From Promethearchaeota archaeon (GTDB taxonomy: Archaea > Asgardarchaeota > Heimdallarchaeia > Hodarchaeales > Hodarchaeaceae): a stretch of DNA of 64,000 nt. The stretch is taken from contig JBHLMN010000011.1 of assembly GCA_048938105.1 (NCBI GenBank), positions 32,001 through 96,000 of the forward strand. Reading direction: 5' to 3'. Below the pieces are notes generated by a model. That model worked only from the letters and a program-made list of their open reading frames with translations. It was not told the DNA's origin and did no database searches. The stretch's first letter is position 1; the number at the start of each line of letters is the position of its first letter. Both the position numbers and the translations under genes were made by a program. Below, one piece after another: positions 24,523 to 36,660 of the stretch.

Positions 24523-27500
24523 TCACCTCTTTTTTCCCGATATTTTTTGTTTAATACGTGAAACTATTGCCACTAGAAACAGTGACAAGAGAATAGCAAG
24601 GATTGGAATGGGTGTTCCCTCTGTTGTCATTTCTGAAGTCATTGTCGTAGTTTTTGTTGAGGTTGTGGTAGTAGTTTCCGAAGTCATTGTCGTAGTGGGA
24701 GTGGTTGTTGCTGAAATTACTTCAACAATAAACACCTCACCATTATCAGCGATGAATTGAATATTCCCAGCCACATCGATCGCAACAGGAATGAAATAAT
24801 ATGTCCCCAAAGAGGAAGTGGGTAATTTGAAATTATAAGATCCATCAGAATCTAGATCGAGAATCTCGGTAATCTGAATCTCTTCTTCATTGAATGCCCA
24901 GACAAGTAACACCCTATCGATTCCGCTTGAGATTTCATTTGTAGGTGTTGGATCTTGAACATTCACGGAAAAGGACAGATCATCACCTTGCGTAACTTGA
25001 TTCGGGATAGCATCAAGCATGTTCATTACTGGAGCTGAGATGTCACCCGTATCAATTAACAATTCAATGTAGCCAGTAGCATTGACTTTTCTTCCCGCAT
25101 ATGACTCCCCAAACACGGTAACATCTATTTGTGCATTCCCTCCAGGATAATTCAATGGCACTTCAACAATAAAGCCATCACCACTTGAAACTTGATCTAT
25201 TAAATCACCATAAATACTACTTGCATTGTAGAGAAAGAGCTCAGAGGATGTGTTAGCTGATCCTGATACTCTGAATCCCACATTATCGACTTGGATATTG
25301 ATATAGAGTAAGAAAATCTCTCCTGGATCAGGAATCCCATCGTCATTCCCATAGACAGAATCATCGATGGAATAACTTAGCAGAGTGATGATAGGCGTGG
25401 GTAATTCTGTAATATCAATCGTAATATTGAAAACTTGAGCTACTTCATGCCCTTTCACGTCTTTTGCTATCAGGTACAATGTAAATGTCGCGGTTTGATT
25501 CCTAGCTGTTTTTGGTATTTCGATTGTAGCCTTGGTAGATGTAGTGCTTGCTGCAGCAGCAACATCACCAATGGTCACATTGGCTTTAGTAATATTTAGA
25601 TCAGGATTATCGGTAGTTATGATTCCTGAAACATCAAAGGCATTGCCTTCCCCGATATTTTGTACAGTAAATTCAATTTTAACCGTTTCGCCCGCTTCAA
25701 ACAAGCCATCAGAATCAGGTTCATATCCCACAGCTGAGACAATATCAAATTCAGGTTTTGGTAAAAATATGGGGATTGCGAAGTAAAGTAAATCAATATA
25801 AGCATACGTTGCGTCTTCATAATAGACATAGAAGTAGAGATAAATCAACCCATCGTCATGAGCAGTTGTAGTAGATATATTAACAAATCCTAGTGTCGTT
25901 GATGAACCTATTGATAGACTTGAGGAGTTTGTAATCCCATTAACTAAAGTCGCAGTATTAATCGTATCTGTATCGAATGCACTAATTACTGATAACTCAG
26001 CATAGGTTATATCAGTAGATCCGCGGTTTGTGACATTGAAGTATATCCCCACTGGGTCACCTGTTTTCCAATAAGTCCCAGGATGATCTAGAAAGATCGC
26101 ACTGATTTCCAGATAGGAATCTCCAGGCTGAACCACGCGGAAATATAGTTCGTAGAAGTTAGTATAAGTTGAGCCATTGGTAGCTAAATATTCAAATGTT
26201 GCATTAGCGAGGATAAAACTTCCTGAGTAAGCTGATGGAATGGAAAACTGAAATCCAGAGTGGAGATCATAATTCCCTCGATTTCGTTCGAGGAGCGATG
26301 TTGAGTCTTGCCCTGAAACGGTCACATTCACTGAGTCAACCGTTGAGTTTACCCCAAGCGCGGATCCATCCCCGAGATTAGTAATCCATACAGAAAAGTC
26401 AACAATATCACCAGGTTCAAGGATACCGTCATTATCTCCATTCACATCAGAAAAGTTATAATTCACCCCAAAGACAAAAGGAAGCTTTTCAGAAGGATTA
26501 ACATTAATCGCTAAATTTAAGGTATCAATATTTTCTGTTTGTAAATGAGCTTTTGCGATAGGGAATGAAAATATTGGAAAACTAAATGGTAGCTTAAATA
26601 TTGCAAGCCCTATGGTTATGTCCAAATAAAATACTAAGCTCAATGTTGCCTCCATATCAAAATCAAATAGATCTGTAGTAATAACATTATCAGAATAAAA
26701 TTCAGGAAGTTCTAGTGAAAATGATTGAATACTTCCATCTTTTCTCCATTCAAGTTTGTTAGTGGATAACCTTGCTGCCAAATCATTCGATTTTACTGAT
26801 GCAGTAAAATCCGAATCGATTTGAGGTCCAATAGAAACTCCAATATTGAGTAATGGAATTGCTACAGGAAATTGAACACCTCTTTTTTCGAGAATGGCCT
26901 TTCCATCCATAGGAGTATTAAAAACCCATTTTTTACTGAAAGGGAGACTCCCTGTGCCTGGGCCAATAACTGGGCCAATCCCAAATATTTGAGCCTTGAA
27001 AAAATAGTCTAGGCCAAATTCGACTGAAAACCCTGCATTCGCTTGATAATTCTCATCAACAATTGTTTGAGTAATGATCTGGGTTCGATCATTTGCATTC
27101 ATAGTCGTGTTTCTATAAGTTGCAAGAATAACAGGCATACTGGAGAAAAACGTTGTGGTGATAGTTTGATTAAGATTATACTGAATAACCCCAGAGGTAT
27201 CTTCTTGATGCGATTTGGATTGATAGACTTTATTATAAGTAAAATTCAGAAGCCAATAATCGACGCTATCATAAGCAATATTCGTTTGAGACGATTGGAT
27301 ACTGTTTAAAGGGAAGATCGATAACTCTTTTGTGCCTGAGATCTCCTCTAGTTCTGAATACACAGTTTGAGTATAGGATTCTTGAGTAAGTAAGTCATTA
27401 AAATTGCTGACACTAATAGGAGATTCATCTTGAATTGTATCTATTTGCTTTGGTTCAGGTGGGATAGTCACCAATAAACTAATAAACACAGAAATCAGCA

Positions 27501-27537
27501 GTATGCTTATAATAGTAAGCATAACTGGTTTTTTCAT
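24523..27537 (-). CDS. Large cell-surface glycoprotein with CARDB/Ig-like repeats and C-terminal anchor
   Basis: N-terminal signal/TM; repeated D.NGD.DG.(L/P)(E/D)PG(D/E) and NxGxG motifs; many N-x-S/T sequons; Thr-rich stalk; TP + TM + basic tail. Confidence 0.88.
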   Translation of the reverse strand: MKKPVMLTIISILLISVFISLLVTIPPEPKQIDTIQDESPISVSNFNDLLTQESYTQTVYSELEEISGTKELSIFPLNSIQSSQTNIAYDSVDYWLLNFTYNKVYQSKSHQEDTSGVIQYNLNQTITTTFFSSMPVILATYRNTTMNANDRTQIITQTIVDENYQANAGFSVEFGLDYFFKAQIFGIGPVIGPGTGSLPFSKKWVFNTPMDGKAILEKRGVQFPVAIPLLNIGVSIGPQIDSDFTASVKSNDLAARLSTNKLEWRKDGSIQSFSLELPEFYSDNVITTDLFDFDMEATLSLVFYLDITIGLAIFKLPFSFPIFSFPIAKAHLQTENIDTLNLAINVNPSEKLPFVFGVNYNFSDVNGDNDGILEPGDIVDFSVWITNLGDGSALGVNSTVDSVNVTVSGQDSTSLLERNRGNYDLHSGFQFSIPSAYSGSFILANATFEYLATNGSTYTNFYELYFRVVQPGDSYLEISAIFLDHPGTYWKTGDPVGIYFNVTNRGSTDITYAELSVISAFDTDTINTATLVNGITNSSSLSIGSSTTLGFVNISTTTAHDDGLIYLYFYVYYEDATYAYIDLLYFAIPIFLPKPEFDIVSAVGYEPDSDGLFEAGETVKIEFTVQNIGEGNAFDVSGIITTDNPDLNITKANVTIGDVAAAASTTSTKATIEIPKTARNQTATFTLYLIAKDVKGHEVAQVFNITIDITELPTPIITLLSYSIDDSVYGNDDGIPDPGEIFLLYINIQVDNVGFRVSGSANTSSELFLYNASSIYGDLIDQVSSGDGFIVEVPLNYPGGNAQIDVTVFGESYAGRKVNATGYIELLIDTGDISAPVMNMLDAIPNQVTQGDDLSFSVNVQDPTPTNEISSGIDRVLLVWAFNEEEIQITEILDLDSDGSYNFKLPTSSLGTYYFIPVAIDVAGNIQFIADNGEVFIVEVISATTTPTTTMTSETTTTTSTKTTTMTSEMTTEGTPIPILAILLSLFLVAIVSRIKQKISGKKR
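24635..24696. repeat. 17-bp direct repeat (45-bp period) in the Thr-rich stalk coding region
   Basis: gaagtcattgtcgtagt at 24635-24651 and 24680-24696. Confidence 0.85.
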
Positions 27538-28140
27538 GACATTACCTCCACTATATCACGTCTTCTCTTTGAGATTTTTTAAACAATTAAGATATAAGAA
27601 ATGACATTTTCTTGAGGTTACATTGTTTCGACTGTTTGTTTCCTAGTTCCCAAAATTTTTTCGTAAACCTCCTTATTGCCCTCTAATAGCGCTTTCATTA
27701 AGATCAAAATCACTCAATAGATTTTAGCTCAATACAACCTGAAGAAAGCCCCTACCGCCATCTCTTGGGTAATACGTTAATTAGTTCAAGGATTATATTT
27801 GCGAGAATACATAAGGACTTAGAATGAGCTGGAAATACTAATTTTACCCTCCTTTGTAATTTTCAAAGGGAAGTTGCTTTGGCAAGGAGCAGGGAAAGAA
27901 TCACCTCATCAATGTTCAATTTGGTTTTGGTGAAAGTAAAATTATGTAAGGAATACTCCTCAGCAGAGATTTTTATAGCAAAAATCCTAGAACAAATAAC
28001 CTCTTGGAAAATGTATTTTTTTATCCCTGATATCTATTTAAAGTCTTATACCTACGCATTCAGGAACCTATTCCTTCGACGAGTAAGAGTGGGATAGGGA
28101 AAATTGATTGTGATTTTAGTAAAAGTAGGTGGTGTGAGAA

Positions 28141-28935
28141 TTGAGACCTTATTCTATGGATATATCTAAGAAATTTAAGCAAAGTATTGAGCTACTAGTA
28201 GGTGATATTACAACTTTAGATGTTGAGGCGATTGTAAATCCAACAGATGCTCATATGACGATGGTTGGTGGATTGAGTCCCAAGATCAAGAGCGTTGGAG
28301 GTCAGGAACTAATTGATGAAGTTGAAAAACTCCGCGGAGATCTGACTAAATTAAATCTAGGAGACGTCCTCGTTTCAACAGGCGGAAACTTACCTGCTAA
28401 AAAGGTTTTCCATGCTCTTTTACCTCCATTGCAGAGAAGAGAGACCATTTTTGAAATAAATCCTGCAGATGTTTTTAACATCATGGAAAAAATCTTAAAC
28501 TTAGCTAAGACCGAAGGATTGAAAAGTATAGCCATACCCGAACTGGGTACTACTGGTGTATTTGGACTTGACCCCAAGGTGTCTGCTGAATCGATGTTGA
28601 ATGCACTCACTAATTTCTTTAGCGAGGAGGAGCTACCAATGAAGACCATAATCGTTCTATCTAAAAAAGAACTATTCGAACCATTTAAAACACAACTTGA
28701 AGACCACCAAATAGCTTTAAGAAAACCAGAAGAAATAGCACAAGAATTTAAGACTCAAATTGAAGAAATTTTTCAACAAGAAGGAGCAAAGGTCGTCCCA
28801 ATGAATGAAATTGTCCAAAAGCTTCAGTTATCAAGTCCACTTAATCTTGCTGATTTACTCCTGGAACACCCTATCCCTGAATATGATTTTGATTGGGATA
28901 GAAAAGTGATAAAACGGGTCACAAAGAGGAGATAG
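28141..28935 (+). CDS. Macrodomain (ADP-ribose-binding) protein with a small C-terminal helical/wHTH-like domain
   Basis: VGDITTLDVEAIVNP, STGGNLPAKKVFHA, SIAIPELGTTGVFG; ggtggtg RBS. Confidence 0.88.
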   Translation: MRPYSMDISKKFKQSIELLVGDITTLDVEAIVNPTDAHMTMVGGLSPKIKSVGGQELIDEVEKLRGDLTKLNLGDVLVSTGGNLPAKKVFHALLPPLQRRETIFEINPADVFNIMEKILNLAKTEGLKSIAIPELGTTGVFGLDPKVSAESMLNALTNFFSEEELPMKTIIVLSKKELFEPFKTQLEDHQIALRKPEEIAQEFKTQIEEIFQQEGAKVVPMNEIVQKLQLSSPLNLADLLLEHPIPEYDFDWDRKVIKRVTKRR

Positions 28936-28937
28936 AA

Positions 28938-29591
28938 ATGCCAGAAAGTATTGATGAAAAAGTCTATCAGGTTTTTCGATTTATCTCACGTAGAAGTTAT
29001 CAAGGTCAGAAACATACCACCCTTATTGACACAGTCGTTGCAAAATACTTCAACCAAGACCAAGCTGAATTTGATTCGTTCATTGATAAGTGCCCGATAG
29101 AATTTAACATTGATGATAATAACAAAACAATCAGCATAAAAGATGCTATCGCTACATACAGACACGGAATCCGATGTATTATAGAAGAGACTAATGCAGT
29201 AGAAACTGATTATGATGAGAAAATTGAAGGTTATAGTAAGTATAACTTATATTTGGGGATAGCTGTCATTATAATTGCAGCAATTGCAGCCACCTCAGCT
29301 TTTCAAATAATAGATCAATTCTTTGGTGGTTTATTAGCTGCAATTGTCGCTAGTGTTAGTACAATTCAGACTGTATTGAAAGAAAAGCATTTTGACCCTG
29401 AGACAAAAGAATCAAGAGAGAAAATATCAGAATGCCATAAATTATCTACTCGGGCTAGTACCATATACACCAAGCTTATTGAAAAACTTTGCAAAGACCC
29501 TGACAAATTCATAAAAGATTACGAGGACTTAACTGGAGACTACAATAAAATACGAAACAAGAAATCAAAATTGTGTATTGATGGTGAGTAA
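28938..29591 (+). CDS. SLATT-like two-TM protein with an N-terminal soluble domain
   Basis: YSKYNLYLGIAVIIIAAIAATSAF...GLLAAIVASVSTIQTVL followed by a polar helical tail, matching the SLATT/DUF4231 layout by eye. Confidence 0.65.
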   Translation: MPESIDEKVYQVFRFISRRSYQGQKHTTLIDTVVAKYFNQDQAEFDSFIDKCPIEFNIDDNNKTISIKDAIATYRHGIRCIIEETNAVETDYDEKIEGYSKYNLYLGIAVIIIAAIAATSAFQIIDQFFGGLLAAIVASVSTIQTVLKEKHFDPETKESREKISECHKLSTRASTIYTKLIEKLCKDPDKFIKDYEDLTGDYNKIRNKKSKLCIDGE

Positions 29592-29638
29592 ATCAAATCA
29601 ATGAGAAAAAGAGGAATAGGGAAAGTTACCGAATATAA

Positions 29639-30658
29639 TTGATAAGGAAGGTAAATATAATGATCTTTAATAAAGAGTGTGATCCACATCCTTATAATAA
29701 GAGTACATTCATGACGACTCATAATTCCTATCGATGGTCAATAACCAAACAACTTGATATTGGAATCAGAGGATTTGAACTGGACATACATGATACTTGG
29801 ACATTACCTGAAAGAATATTGGGAAAGTTATCAGGAGGTAGATATAAAGGGAACTTCAAGATAGGTCATGGTTGGGCTGGACATGAGGTGCATCATCGAA
29901 AAAGGGGAAATCCTTGGGGAAATAATGTCGAAAAGTGGTTAGGGAAGATAGCTGAATGGTCGAGAGAGCATAATGGTCATCCTCCGATCACAGTGTTTAT
30001 AGATATTAAGAAGAATTTGGTTGATGCCAATAACAAACCACCTGAGCAGTTCGGTCTTATCCGTTTGAACGAACAAATTCTCAATGTGTTCAAGAACAAC
30101 GAAGCTAGATTGGTTACTTCAGAAGATTTTGCCAACTTCTTCAAAAGACAGGATTCAGGCCCCACTATTGGAGATTTACGAAACAAGATCATTGTTGTTT
30201 TAATGAGTTTTCACGTCCCATTGGAAAAAGAGTTACAAAAAAATCCAAACCTCATCAAGAGAGTTTTTAGTCGGCTTATTAAGTCCTGGAAAGAATTACC
30301 TATCCATTTTTTTATTGATCCAATAGGTGCAATGAAAACGAGGATAGTTTATCAAAAAGGGAGGATTAAAAACGATATACCCCTTGATGCCATTTGTTGT
30401 GTCGCTTTCAACCCTCAAGATCCAGATGAATCTGATTATGAACCTTTCCTTGAGGAAAAATCATTATTTGTTACACCATACTCTCCCGATAAATATACAG
30501 ATTATATATCCCGTTGTTGCGAAAAAGGTTTGATTGTACGGTCAGATTATAAAAAACGAGATGGTTCTTGGCCCCCTCTTCCTCCTTGTGTTAATTTTCC
30601 CGTAGCTGACGATTGGGAAGATGACGGGTATCTAAACGCGACTGACTGGGTGAAATAA
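29639..30658 (+). CDS. PI-PLC X-domain phosphodiesterase (phosphatidylinositol-specific phospholipase C-like)
   Basis: THNSY, QLDIGIRGFELDIH, IGHG, PTIGDLRNKII; no signal peptide; start may be ATG 29660. Confidence 0.85.
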   Translation: MIRKVNIMIFNKECDPHPYNKSTFMTTHNSYRWSITKQLDIGIRGFELDIHDTWTLPERILGKLSGGRYKGNFKIGHGWAGHEVHHRKRGNPWGNNVEKWLGKIAEWSREHNGHPPITVFIDIKKNLVDANNKPPEQFGLIRLNEQILNVFKNNEARLVTSEDFANFFKRQDSGPTIGDLRNKIIVVLMSFHVPLEKELQKNPNLIKRVFSRLIKSWKELPIHFFIDPIGAMKTRIVYQKGRIKNDIPLDAICCVAFNPQDPDESDYEPFLEEKSLFVTPYSPDKYTDYISRCCEKGLIVRSDYKKRDGSWPPLPPCVNFPVADDWEDDGYLNATDWVK

Positions 30659-31387
30659 TGATTTCAAAATCATGAATCTAGACAGCTAATTCCAATCTTT
30701 CCTTTTGTGGTTCAAATATAGACATATCAACAGGAATTAAATCAACTTCTTGTAGTAAGGGGTATATCCATGGATCGCACACAATTTTTCAAGGGTTTAA
30801 GCGTTCCGATAATAGCATTAATTGTTTATTTGCTATTGTATAGCTAGATAGTATCAACACACAGACCTCCAGATGGACGGTACAGTGGTTATCTTTGCAA
30901 TGAAGAAGAGTAGGATAAAGTACGCAAGTGTCCACGGCGAGTGCGTCAACGGATGCTAGTACTGAATCGCAGCCCGATGCTTGAACTGCACCCCTTCATA
31001 TTGAAAGCTCGCAAGCGAAGGGGTTCACATTGTCATTTACAGCTATTCTTATTTTTGTTAAACTTAATGACTCAACTAGATTTTCGTATTGTCCATCTCA
31101 AAGATGATTTGAGCTTAGTGATCCTCTATTGCAATCAGGACCCGTCATTCATAACTAAACTAAGAGAAAAAATCATCCCACAATATGAGGAAGACTAAAA
31201 AAAGGGTATTTTTTTCAGGTAAGGCAAAATGATCATTATGGTTACTTATGACAAATCCCTCTTAACTGGAGATATGATGATTTTACACTTGGTTGATGGA
31301 AAAATCGCTCCAATCTACCAATCTAAGAGTCAAACTGCTAAAATCGAGGGGAACTGATAATCCTGAATCGCTTCAAAAAGTGGGAAC

Positions 31388-34264: not shown

Positions 34265-35275
34265 TCACCCTGTTTGACTGATGAACCCTACACGACATGT
34301 CCATAGATAGAAGAACACCCCACCCACGATCACACAGGTCGCAATAATCAAGTTTAGGGAAGGAGGGATCGGAATTTCAGTCAATGCGATGAGAAAATAG
34401 GGAATGAACCACCCAACGACAATTAACGGAACAAAAACGAGGAGAGTAATAAAGAATCTTGATTGAGAGGAAGGAATCTCACTGATTTCCGCAATATTGG
34501 CAGGAACATTCCATCTAGTGAGAAAGAAGACCTTTCGTTTAATGACAGGTAAGAGAGAGATTAAGAAGATTAAAAATGTAATGATGATACTAAGTTGTCC
34601 AATAACAACTAAAATAGTCATGAGAGGGATAAATGAGAGGAATTTACGCCTATAGGCGTTAATTATAATTGAGACCAACAACCTGCCCCACCACTGTGTA
34701 CAATAAGACACAATCACAACACCAGGATAATACAATAACCCAGTATGGATGAGATGTTTATCCCAGTAAACAGAGAAAGAAAAAGCAACAAGAAAAAAGA
34801 GAATGGAACATAAACCCAACATGATGAAGAACAAAGTCATGAGGAGGTAATGTAGATTGTTCTCTATGAGAGGTATGGGAATAAATCCTTTATGGAAGGC
34901 GGAGAGAATTGGAGGGAGGGGAATAACCATGACAATGCCACAAATTGGAAAAACAGAGTAAAAGAGAATTTTAAACAGGCGAGGAACCTCAGTAGATGAG
35001 GTTGGAAAATCAATTTGAATCACAAACATTAAGAAAAGAAAGACTCCAAGAGTTAAGAGGGGAAGATAATGATATTCTGGGAGTAATATCAGGTCAGACG
35101 CCAATCCTGCATCCGCCTGAAGAAACTCAATCCAAGAGAAACCCGCAACACTAATTCCCCACAGAATTTCCTTCATCAACACGGGATAGTTGAACCCCGT
35201 CACCACAACAGCGAGCAGACACATGAAACAATAGAGCAGGGGGCGAGTTTGGAGGTGGCGTAACCGCTGATACAT
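34265..35275 (-). CDS. Multi-pass membrane protein coupled to the LRR gene
   Basis: About 8-9 TMs; start reassigned to the ATG overlapping the LRR stop (TAATG at 35273-35277). Confidence 0.72.
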   Translation of the reverse strand: MYQRLRHLQTRPLLYCFMCLLAVVVTGFNYPVLMKEILWGISVAGFSWIEFLQADAGLASDLILLPEYHYLPLLTLGVFLFLMFVIQIDFPTSSTEVPRLFKILFYSVFPICGIVMVIPLPPILSAFHKGFIPIPLIENNLHYLLMTLFFIMLGLCSILFFLVAFSFSVYWDKHLIHTGLLYYPGVVIVSYCTQWWGRLLVSIIINAYRRKFLSFIPLMTILVVIGQLSIIITFLIFLISLLPVIKRKVFFLTRWNVPANIAEISEIPSSQSRFFITLLVFVPLIVVGWFIPYFLIALTEIPIPPSLNLIIATCVIVGGVFFYLWTCRVGFISQTG

Positions 35276-36660
35276 TAATAATCCCAAGAATTTATATACA
35301 GGCGCCGTTGCTCTTTGTAATAGGCGTGGAGGCGTGGGGGAAGACCTGACACACAAATACGACCAATGGAAGGAGGAAGAACCCGTAAGGGATTGTTTGC
35401 TAAAGAAAGGCACAAGGTCAAGGAAAGATTGCCAATATTCGCAGGAAGCTCCTCTAAACAATTGGATTCCAGAGATAAGAAATCTAGTGGGAAATCACAC
35501 ACAAAATCAGGAAGATGGGAGATTTGGTTATTGGCTAATTCTAAATTCCGAAGCTGCTTCAAATTCTGGAGAGTAGGAGGAAGAGTAGTTAATTGGTTGT
35601 TACTTAAACATAAATTTCTTAATTTCGATAAGTGACAAATAATCTCTGGGAAATCAGAGATCTGATTGCTATGTATGCTTAAATCTTCCAACTGTGTGAG
35701 GTTACCAAGAGTGTTTGGTAAAAATTGTAACTTATTATTACTACAGAAGAGAGTATGCAGCTTAATCAGGTTACCTACTGACTCGGGTAACGTGGTTAAT
35801 TGATTATTACTTAAAATTAAGACTTTAAGTTGAAATAATTCGTTAATTCCCTGGGGAAGAGATGAAAGATTATTATCACCTACAGACAATCCTTCCAGCT
35901 GTTTTAGTTTACAAATCGCCTCAGGAAGCGCTGGAATCTGATTCCAGCCTAACCTTAAAATTTTTAAATTGATTAGATTACCAATGCTGTCAGGACATGC
36001 TGTAAGGCGATTATCCGAGAGATCAAGCAGAGTCAAGCTGGTCAAGTGGGTAATTTCTGCTAAAGCAGTCTCATCTAACGCATTGTTCGCTAAAGAGAGC
36101 TCTCTCAGGGCAGTTAAATTTCGGAAACATGATGGGATTTGTCGCAGTTGGGCATTCTTAAGAGTTAACGCCTCCACGCGAGGAAACTGACAAAATAAAC
36201 TGGGTATCTTCCCTAACGGGTAATTTTCCACCTCCAACTCCTCGAGGTGTACCAACTGAATGATCGAAGGAGGGAACACAAGCTGTGTGTTCATTTGGTC
36301 GTCCGTAACGAACAATAAGCGCACCACCCGTCTCTCCTCCACAAAAACCACCCCAGAACCAGGAAGAAACCAAGTCCACCCTTCCTCTTCCGTGACATCT
36401 TCCTCACTGACATAGACAAATCTGATCTTCCCGAACTCCTGTAGGATGTTCACTTCCTCCCGCTCGAGATACTCTAACGGATCGATAGGCTCTCCTTCCG
36501 TATCTATACTGCGCCGTTGTGGCCGTTGGCGTTCTCGTTCAAAGTACTTCAAGCTTCTTTCCGCTAGGAGCCTCTCCATCCGATCCCTCTCGGTTTCGTT
36601 TTTTCCCATATGCCTCACCGATTCATCCGTATTGGCTTTTCGTCTCCTCTCTTTCTCCAT
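35275..36660 (-). CDS. Leucine-rich repeat protein with charged N-terminal extension
   Basis: About 12 23-aa repeats LxxLPxxxxNLxxLxxLxLxxN; Arg/Glu-rich N-terminus. Confidence 0.93.
   Translation of the reverse strand: MEKERRRKANTDESVRHMGKNETERDRMERLLAERSLKYFERERQRPQRRSIDTEGEPIDPLEYLEREEVNILQEFGKIRFVYVSEEDVTEEEGWTWFLPGSGVVFVEERRVVRLLFVTDDQMNTQLVFPPSIIQLVHLEELEVENYPLGKIPSLFCQFPRVEALTLKNAQLRQIPSCFRNLTALRELSLANNALDETALAEITHLTSLTLLDLSDNRLTACPDSIGNLINLKILRLGWNQIPALPEAICKLKQLEGLSVGDNNLSSLPQGINELFQLKVLILSNNQLTTLPESVGNLIKLHTLFCSNNKLQFLPNTLGNLTQLEDLSIHSNQISDFPEIICHLSKLRNLCLSNNQLTTLPPTLQNLKQLRNLELANNQISHLPDFVCDFPLDFLSLESNCLEELPANIGNLSLTLCLSLANNPLRVLPPSIGRICVSGLPPRLHAYYKEQRRLYINSWDY

Follow-up and report, generated by a model that had tools for sequence, protein, structure and literature searches.

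The analysed stretch of DNA (the window; 64 kb of contig JBHLMN010000011.1 of a Promethearchaeota archaeon, to which all positions refer) carries a conserved two-gene module, in which a gene encoding a macro-domain protein directly precedes a gene encoding a SLATT-like membrane protein with two transmembrane helices (2TM protein). The macro and SLATT genes are inherited and kept together, and the best explanation of the module, drawn by analogy with known systems and given roughly an even chance of being right, is that a macro protein sensing an ADPR-type ligand would control a SLATT membrane effector. The PI-PLC gene located downstream, which the original prediction had combined with the pair into a single three-gene defence or signalling system, is, judged from the gene neighbourhoods compared here, a lineage-specific addition in this genome, placed outside the conserved module and not a required component of it.

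Structure of the locus

Three co-oriented ORFs were confirmed, the third starting at 29639 or 29660 (Table 1). Their spacing agrees with that first described (2 nt and about 50-70 nt): the macro and SLATT genes are separated by 2 nt, and the SLATT and PI-PLC genes by 68 nt (47 nt with the TTG at 29639), the TTG start of the macro gene and the ATG start of the PI-PLC gene both being backed by the N-termini of homologues. The claimed isolation of the genes by long non-coding stretches was also borne out, with 603 nt (27538-28140) before the macro gene and 729 nt (30659-31387) after the PI-PLC gene; Rfam and tRNA scans of these flanks gave no match.

The genes neighbouring the trio encode (i) a WD40 protein, (ii) a prolyl oligopeptidase, (iii) a DinB protein, (iv) a 1004-aa protein of unknown family, (v) an ABC transporter, (vi) a membrane protein, (vii) an LRR protein and (viii) an actin. 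As previously stated, there is no TIR, cyclase or ART among the window neighbours scanned with Pfam. The description of the region as accessory likewise holds, since the pair is carried by 3/21 genomes of the genus, the 1004-aa flanking gene by 3/21 and a 398-aa flanking gene by 1/21. Orthologues of the 1004-aa upstream gene in two genomes (G002 and G018) share no further synteny with the window, and therefore no clean insertion boundary can be drawn.

Table 1. Features of the locus (positions in the 64-kb window).
Feature	Position	Strand	Remarks
Purine-rich upstream motif, copy 1	28076-28105	+	direct repeat; core GAGnAAnAGnGGrATAGGGAAAnTT at 28081-28105
Macro-domain protein	28141-28935	+	264 aa, TTG start
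Macro domain	~28174-28710	+	Pfam Macro
Macro C-terminal winged-helix domain	~28726-28917	+	AF2 model
WH-SLATT membrane protein	28938-29591	+	217 aa
SLATT-protein N-terminal winged helix	~28938-29138	+	
SLATT-protein TM hairpin	~29235-29378	+	
SLATT-protein C-terminal cytoplasmic helices	~29385-29579	+	
Upstream motif, copy 2	29598-29627	+	direct repeat
Cytoplasmic Ca-type PI-PLC-like phosphodiesterase	29660-30658	+	332 aa, ATG start

Conservation of the macro and SLATT genes

HMMER, run exhaustively against 1.84 billion representatives, recovered relatives of the 2TM protein only at six loci, namely the window, G005, G012, L028, L030 and L032; three of these belong to genomes of a single Asgard genus, and the other three are on contigs of sediment metagenomes. 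In 6/6 cases the gene immediately 5' of these independent 2TM homologues is a macro gene, always from one subfamily, at a spacing of -8 to +15 nt; in three loci the start and stop overlap by 4-8 nt. Across the loci the macro proteins share 31-48% identity and the 2TM proteins 18-35%. Because all six family members are adjacent to a macro gene, a real functional link between the two genes is supported by gene order. The 2TM family was found in 3/399 genomes of the phylum, all of one genus, and the macro alignment retrieved no further members from metagenome, genome and viral contig collections. In a word-index search the single protein returned only itself, and the alignment returned three family members. 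A 408-aa eukaryotic match with five repeated stretches (P0020; 1e-4) was dropped as low-complexity.

The gene in third position differs between the loci, being the PI-PLC gene (window), a gene for an LpxH-like metallophosphoesterase or one for a glycine-rich membrane protein, or being missing altogether. In two loci orthologous metallophosphoesterases (40% identity) adjoin the pair in different gene orders. This arrangement, together with the lack of defence context and the description in the literature of calcineurin-like phosphoesterases as ADPr-processing partners, is consistent with a role in the housekeeping or stress handling of NAD and ADPR at the membrane, where the macro protein, sometimes with the LpxH-like enzyme, would process ADPR derivatives and the 2TM protein would act as an anchor or channel. 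We consider such a role very unlikely, as the module is far too rare (see the genus and phylum counts above), in G009 and G018 the phosphoesterase is found unaccompanied by the pair, and the catalytic loops of the macro domain are degenerate.

No linked signal-generating enzyme was detected in any of the six loci, nor could a family be assigned to the unknown neighbours in L030, L032 and L045, among which no hidden signal synthase was found. PADLOC, applied to the neighbours in the window and in L030, L032 and L045, reported nothing but a weak PDC-S10 match to the phosphoesterase. It holds no model covering the pair, in line with the earlier statement that no existing defence model applies. 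The proposed check for association with defence islands went the other way: no known defence genes were found by PADLOC and Pfam beside the loci examined, and no recognisable defence island surrounds any pair locus. TIR_2 is encoded in this genome only on another contig (C63), and TIR_2 genes occur in 2/3 genomes of the genus with the pair vs 4/18 without it, a distribution which shows no clear co-occurrence and is not informative.

Macro-domain protein

The domain identities originally given to the three proteins (macro, SLATT-like 2TM and cytoplasmic PI-PLC) were upheld, with Pfam matches above the cut-offs for the first and third, and a sub-cut-off SLATT_4 match together with hydropathy for the second. 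The macro protein matches Pfam Macro (PF01661; 2.1e-18, 66.8 bits) above the curated cut-off of 22, and its AF2 model (pLDDT 81) has a macro fold, as indicated by Foldseek alignment with YmdB (TM 0.87, E 4e-14). The top matches of its profile in the PDB are the PARP14 macro domain, macroH2A1.1 and MacroD, and hydropathy revealed no TM or signal segment. Scores against NCBIfam equivalogs (~65 bits) are far under the cut-offs of 200-315, and the match to ThsA_Macro (PF20016; E 0.15) covers only residues 206-224, off the domain; in contrast to ThsA, the window protein belongs to the MacroD/macroH2A-like group.

The GDI motif, which contacts adenine, is present in 5/6 macro members. A MacroD-type ADP-ribosyl hydrolase would be expected to have a catalytic Asp within its GGxD loop and to retain loop 2 (G-x-G-x-[FY]-G) intact. 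The Asp occurs in 1/6 members, its position being occupied by Ser in 4/6 (including the window protein) and by Phe in 1/6, and loop 2 is variable across the family. This pattern would be more in keeping with an ADPR binder than with a MacroD-type hydrolase. Not all members can be taken to bind ADPR, as conservation of the ligand loops across the family is poor and the G012 protein lacks loop 2 through a deletion.

The same residues bear on a toxin-antitoxin-like interpretation, according to which the SLATT protein would be a membrane toxin and the macro protein would restrain it, either by acting as an antitoxin or by removing, as an ADP-ribosyl hydrolase, a modification that activates or inactivates it. 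Antitoxins of the macro type are established, DarG of DarTG being an example, and the module resembles DarTG in consisting of two genes for a macro protein and a potentially toxic partner; tight translational coupling (the start-stop overlaps in three loci) and a patchy, accessory distribution point in the same direction. In contrast to DarTG, the partner is a membrane protein, with no ADP-ribosyltransferase present, and the MacroD-type catalytic Asp is not conserved, being kept in the single member mentioned above; we regard this interpretation as unlikely. In type II toxin-antitoxin loci the antitoxin gene mostly comes first and the order is variable, so the macro-first order is uninformative here.

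SLATT-like membrane protein

The 2TM protein matches the NCBIfam SLATT_4 model (NF033632) with 1e-10 and 41.6 bits, below the 55-bit cut-off. Within the family, at E<0.1, SLATT_4 is matched by 5/6 members (best 1e-10) and SLATT_1 by 4/6. The PADLOC models of CBASS "2TM effectors" (PDLC00712 and PDLC00710) align with the window protein across the TM hairpin (2e-7), and such a match was obtained for 3/6 family members; the Pfam SLATT models (PF18186 and PF18181) do not match it. Hydropathy places a hydrophobic TM block at residues 100-147, followed by helices up to residue 214, and the protein thus has the SLATT architecture, in which a cytoplasmic helical segment comes after two neighbouring TM helices. 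Its AF2 model (pLDDT 81) gave nothing significant in a Foldseek comparison with the PDB, and in an Atlas search it was matched through the winged helix alone. The nearest Atlas cluster by features, "SMODS and SLOG-associating 2TM effector" (score 0.86), serves as a lead only.

Predicted winged helices on both proteins

In the models, an extra winged-helix domain of H-E-H-H-E-E topology with near-identical element lengths is found beyond the macro fold at the C-terminus of the macro protein and at the N-terminus of the SLATT protein, the latter matching winged-helix folds. The idea of matched winged helices rests on model topologies only, since the profile-profile similarity found by hhalign is weak (E 0.04, probability 1.3%). 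The pairing is not universal: the winged helix is missing from the G005 macro protein and from the G012 2TM protein. Both winged-helix profiles detected no third copy in the genome, e.g., on TIR proteins. Complex prediction of the macro protein with the N-terminal domain of the SLATT protein gave a score of 0.24 against a mark of 0.32, which counts neither way.

PI-PLC gene and upstream motif

The PI-PLC protein scores 33.9 bits against Pfam PI-PLC-C1 (PF16670; cut-off 29.9), only profile positions 114-234 being aligned, and matches the PI-PLC of PDB entry 5fyo with 9e-4. Residues H21, N22, E40, D42 and H70 (HN / ExD / H), whose catalytic roles we presume from knowledge of eukaryotic PLC-delta, are invariant in 6 homologues. 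In these respects the protein is like Ca2+-dependent bacterial PI-PLCs; it differs from them in that its family is specific to the genus and consists of lone genes, and in having no signal peptide, so that it would be cytoplasmic. No TM segment was found by hydropathy either.

The PI-PLC gene adjoins the pair in 1/6 loci, that of the present genome. In 6 other genomes of the genus its homologues are lone genes with no common neighbours, as is a paralogue on contig C39 of the present genome, and no macro or 2TM gene lies near any of them. Furthermore, in the syntenic metagenome locus L030 the pair is accompanied by the same downstream flank, whereas the PI-PLC gene and the ABC transporter are both missing. 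The expectation that the genes would be syntenic elsewhere was therefore satisfied for macro and SLATT in every locus and failed for the PI-PLC gene, and the claim that the trio forms one system was not sustained.

These observations make it decidedly unlikely that the three genes constitute a single three-part system, in which the PI-PLC would be a second membrane-attacking effector or the maker of an inositol-phosphate messenger; in addition, no PADLOC model matches the PI-PLC. Such a system would be in keeping with the common strand, the 68-nt gap free of a T-run terminator, the intact catalytic set and the occurrence of a phosphoesterase or membrane protein in third position elsewhere, as well as with the upstream motif shared by the macro and PI-PLC genes.

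From the end of copy 1 of this motif it is 35 nt to the macro start, and an A/T-rich TATA-like stretch lies between them, ~25 nt upstream of the start; copy 2, at a near-equal distance, ends 32 nt before the PI-PLC ATG, with the TATA-like AATATAAT between them, ~24 nt upstream of that ATG. Zero-mismatch matches of the 25-nt motif occur at these two sites only in the 64-kb window and the 5.85-Mb genome, and the two upstream regions rank 1st of 666 upstream-region pairs. The motif is absent from the five other pair loci. The PI-PLC gene probably has its own promoter, and because a genome-unique upstream motif is common to both, it may be co-regulated with the macro gene.

The position of the motif just upstream of the TATA-like elements of both units, together with the modelled C-terminal winged helix of the macro protein, could also indicate that this protein is an ADPR-responsive transcription factor, binding the repeated motif and controlling the macro-SLATT and PI-PLC promoters; the Nudix-wHTH regulator NrtR is a precedent. 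This is the least probable of the readings considered here, given that the other loci do not share the motif, that the G005 macro protein has no winged helix and that the same kind of domain on a membrane protein suggests protein-protein pairing, not DNA binding. This one locus is no sufficient ground for annotating the PI-PLC as a component of a three-gene defence system.

Comparison with known systems and proposed function

In type II Thoeris, the Macro domain binds His-ADPR/ADPR and drives TM clustering, the ligands being His-ADPR, ADPR or IAD (PMC11204291; bioRxiv 10.1101/2024.01.03.573942), and in type VII Thoeris the SLATT effector ThsH answers cADPR (bioRxiv 10.64898/2025.12.03.692087). 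SLATT proteins have also been predicted in the literature to be membrane effectors regulated by ADPr derivatives. The module studied here is like type II ThsA in combining a macro domain with a two-helix membrane element, for which a course from ligand binding through TM clustering to membrane damage can be proposed. Unlike ThsA, which joins 2TM and Macro in one polypeptide, it has the two parts encoded by separate genes, with a winged helix on each protein, a SLATT-like TM part and an archaeal host. The likeness to type VII ThsH lies in a SLATT-type 2TM effector that is presumed to form oligomers in the membrane in response to an ADPR derivative; whereas ThsH has a TIR partner and proposed signal pockets between SLATT protomers, a separate macro protein is the candidate sensor here. 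In contrast to both Thoeris types, no TIR (ThsB) gene is adjacent in any of the six loci. The TM hairpin is similar in sequence to CBASS 2TM (SLATT) effectors, but the N-terminal domain differs and no CD-NTase/SMODS cyclase was found nearby in Pfam and PADLOC scans of the neighbours.

According to the favoured explanation, the functional unit would consist of a soluble, divergent macro protein with a C-terminal winged helix and a downstream SLATT hairpin protein. The macro protein would recognise ADP-ribose in a ligand, which could be a small molecule or else a macromolecule that has been ADP-ribosylated, and by contacting the SLATT protein would control the assembly of the latter into a membrane-permeabilising oligomer. 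The module would follow the logic of type II ThsA, whose single chain holds both TM and Macro, and of type VII ThsH (SLATT), but with the parts divided between two proteins and no TIR in cis. Because no TIR is present in cis, the ligand would have an outside source, such as unlinked NADases or TIRs, viral ADP-ribosyltransferases or NAD breakdown. That an ADPR-type signal gates the membrane effector is what we infer by analogy with Thoeris. A more far-reaching proposal, which we rate as rather unlikely, is a self-contained archaeal immune or stress module without its own synthase, which would detect ADP-ribose-type products that others make, be they viral ADP-ribosyltransferases or NADases from other parts of the genome, and would then open the membrane; the matching winged helices would dock the sensor on the pore, and swappable phosphodiesterases (PI-PLC or LpxH-like) would tune or amplify the response.

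Macro-TM and SLATT effectors are not known outside bacterial Thoeris, where they partner TIR enzymes. If the proposed function is correct, the stand-alone, TIR-less macro and SLATT pair of an Asgard archaeon would represent a new architecture of ADPR-linked membrane effector and would offer a simple two-protein system in which to study the gating of a SLATT pore by a soluble nucleotide sensor. The pair would likewise enlarge the sparse knowledge of ADPR-based signalling among archaea related to eukaryotes.

Gene organization of the locus

The coordinates of the analyzed features are summarized in the Table. Inspection of the ORF list and sequence agreed with the original prediction of three co-oriented genes, with gaps of 2 nt (macro/2TM) and 68 nt (2TM/PLC; predicted as ~50-70 nt), isolated by long non-coding stretches (603 and 729 nt). 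The TTG start of the macro gene is favored by the aligned N-termini of homologues and by an upstream GGTGGTG, while the public gene call (P0004; 259 aa) begins from ATG at 28156. For the PLC gene, homologue alignment favors the ATG start over an alternative TTG at 29639 (7 residues longer).

Table. Features of the macro-2TM-PLC locus and its surroundings (window positions unless indicated).
Feature	Position	Strand	Description
1004-aa protein	24523-27537	-	No Pfam family
Purine-rich direct repeat (30 nt)	28076-28105 and 29598-29627		23/30 identical
Macro gene	28141-28935	+	264 aa, TTG start
2TM gene	28938-29591	+	217 aa
PLC gene	29660-30658	+	332 aa
G+C patch	30860-31020		~150 nt, ~50% G+C
Multi-pass membrane protein gene	34265-35461	-	Overlaps the LRR gene
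LRR gene	35275-36660	-	Head-to-head with actin
Membrane-LRR genes of metagenome locus L030	2356-5561		51% identity

The surroundings encode WD40, prolyl oligopeptidase, DinB, ABC transporter, membrane, LRR and full-length actin proteins and an uncharacterized 1004-aa protein, and fit an Asgard archaeon. In agreement with the original prediction, which saw none nearby, no TIR, cyclase or ART gene was found among the neighbors in the window. The 1004-aa protein shows only a faint Ig_VWA7 match, and has 65%-identical orthologues within differing neighborhoods in two genomes of the genus. The G+C patch, located within the AT-rich 729-nt spacer following the PLC gene, has no Rfam match and an ordinary fold energy (z about -1.3, both strands), and might be what remains of a gene.

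Conservation of the macro-2TM pair

The conserved part of the locus is the first two genes, and not the trio. Directly behind both of the nearest macro relatives in the genus (contig C233 of genome G012 and contig C80 of G005) is a gene for a ~200-220-aa protein that carries a hydrophobic hairpin in its center. When 1.84 billion representatives were scanned exhaustively by HMMER with the 2TM protein as query, the credible relatives numbered only three (P0017, P0018 and P0019), each encoded immediately 3' of a macro gene on its own contig. In total, six independent loci were distinguished (identical re-assemblies counted once), with macro-2TM spacing of -8 to +15 nt and amino acid identities of 31-48% (macro) and 18-35% (2TM). 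Of 399 genomes from the phylum, a profile of the six detected the family in 3, each belonging to this genus, and searches of metagenome, genome and viral collections with the macro alignment added no further members. The pair is a rare, fast-evolving and strictly paired module. A toxin-antitoxin-like pair is a less likely, rival reading of its function.

The third position is variable: (i) a PI-PLC in the window, (ii) an LpxH-like metallophosphoesterase directly downstream of the pair in G012 (L045), (iii) its orthologue in L032 (40% identity), located three genes upstream of the pair, together with an ICMT/PEMT-like methyltransferase downstream, (iv) a 177-aa glycine-rich membrane protein after or near the pair in L030, and (v) no co-oriented enzyme in G005 and L028. 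In G009 and G018, the LpxH-like phosphoesterase is found without the pair. In L032 (1700-4928) and L061 (6034-8448) it accompanies two uncharacterized proteins (313 and 367 aa) that are probably located in the membrane; the homologue of the former in the complete genome G009 is a 96-aa ORF, possibly truncated.

The next two genes of L030, for a membrane protein and an LRR protein on the opposite strand, are orthologues (51% identity) of the overlapping genes in the window flank, so this relative carries the pair at the equivalent chromosomal position but has neither the PLC nor the ABC transporter gene. This membrane-LRR gene pair is thus kept in a metagenome relative; no other genome of the genus gave a match to its membrane protein at E<=1e-20.

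The PI-PLC gene

The third gene was correctly recognized as a PI-PLC: it exceeds the Pfam PI-PLC-C1 cut-off (33.9 vs 29.9 bits), weakly matches a solved Ca-dependent PI-PLC structure (5fyo), and its HN, ExD and H positions are invariant over six homologues. Homologues (45-55% identity) were detected in 6 of 20 same-genus genomes and on a second contig of the genome carrying the window (G000), with neither a macro nor a 2TM gene lying inside 1.5 kb of any of them, and their neighborhoods (10-16 kb) share essentially nothing with each other or with the window. Hence the PLC falls in a family of solitary genes for cytoplasmic proteins, spread at the level of the genus, and the copy in the window is a diverged paralogue. 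Overall, members of this family, which lack a signal peptide, are present in 7 of the 21 genus genomes, always lone and in unrelated contexts (L051-L055; G000:C39:236994-237914), the two G000 copies being ~46% identical.

The proposal that macro, SLATT-like and PI-PLC proteins form one system was thus not supported and is an unlikely rival reading: the macro and 2TM genes co-occur in six loci, none of the PLC homologues detected in the genus lies within 1.5 kb of either, and L030 carries the pair without PLC.

The two copies of the direct repeat precede the macro and PLC starts by 35 and 32 nt, respectively, and each is followed by a TATA-like stretch ~25 nt before the start codon. The 25-nt core of the repeat (zero mismatch) occurs only at these two sites in the 5.85-Mb genome, and the two upstream regions rank first of 666 pairs within the window; the other loci of the pair lack the motif. 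Since a genome-unique repeat and a TATA-like stretch precede both genes, the PLC gene probably has a separate promoter, either a copy of the macro promoter or regulated together with it. The repeat itself could represent an operator common to both genes or a promoter region that was duplicated.

Domain architecture and predicted function

The first gene encodes, as proposed, a macro domain (Pfam, 2.1e-18). By profile, it comes closest to PARP14 macro domains, macroH2A1.1 and MacroD/YmdB. Five of the six family members retain the GDI motif, only one retains Asp in the GGxD loop of MacroD (Ser in four, Phe in one), and the second phosphate loop is variable (deleted in G012). This pattern would suit a binding protein better than a hydrolase of the MacroD type, and makes any assignment of a ligand tentative. 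An ADPR-metabolite-handling module is a second, less likely rival reading of the pair.

The 2TM protein, the only one of the three with hydrophobic segments (residues 100-147), has no Pfam family. Its predicted SLATT-like nature gained partial support: it matches NCBIfam SLATT_4 (1e-10, under that model's cut-off) and PADLOC CBASS "2TM effector" models (2e-7), and within the family SLATT_4, SLATT_1 and PADLOC 2TM effectors were matched by five, four and three of six members. In the AF2 model, the N-terminal domain is followed by a long hairpin of helices, which includes the TM block, and then by cytoplasmic helices; as modeled, this is the SLATT layout. SLATT membership is probable but not formal, because Pfam SLATT models gave no match.

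Both AF2 models (pLDDT 81 each) contain a small H-E-H-H-E-E domain. In the macro protein it comes after the macro fold (residues 191-254 of the 259-aa form), and in the 2TM protein it is N-terminal (residues 5-66) and matched winged-helix folds in the ESM Atlas. The two winged helices agree in model topology, with weak sequence similarity, and the domain is absent from the G005 macro and the G012 2TM proteins. The macro-winged-helix protein could alternatively be an NrtR-like regulator.

The pairing is conserved and the domain architectures are established; a mechanism can be inferred from published systems. The Macro domain of type II Thoeris binds His-ADPR/ADPR, causing its TM helices to cluster (PMC11204291; bioRxiv 10.1101/2024.01.03.573942), type VII Thoeris uses a SLATT effector responding to cADPR (bioRxiv 10.64898/2025.12.03.692087), and SLATT is predicted in the literature to be a permeability effector regulated by ADPr derivatives. 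By analogy, the simplest reading would have the macro protein sense an ADPR-type ligand and control the SLATT protein, possibly docking via the paired winged helices. Counting against this reading, no signal synthase is linked to the pair in any of the six loci, TIR genes (in G000 only on contig C63) show no clear co-occurrence with the pair in the genus, and no defence-island context was found. The C63 genes are three clustered TIR_2-domain ORFs (~36.9-40.5 kb; L048-L050; open frames of 864, 340 and 143 aa), which could represent an unlinked NADase or defence locus.

As anticipated, no PADLOC model covers the macro-SLATT pair, and it is not described in the TIR-system survey, the NAD-ADPr virus survey or the Asgard defensome paper. 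The pair is rare, known to date from a single Asgard genus and related contigs from sediment, and is best viewed as a putative ADPR-linked membrane effector.
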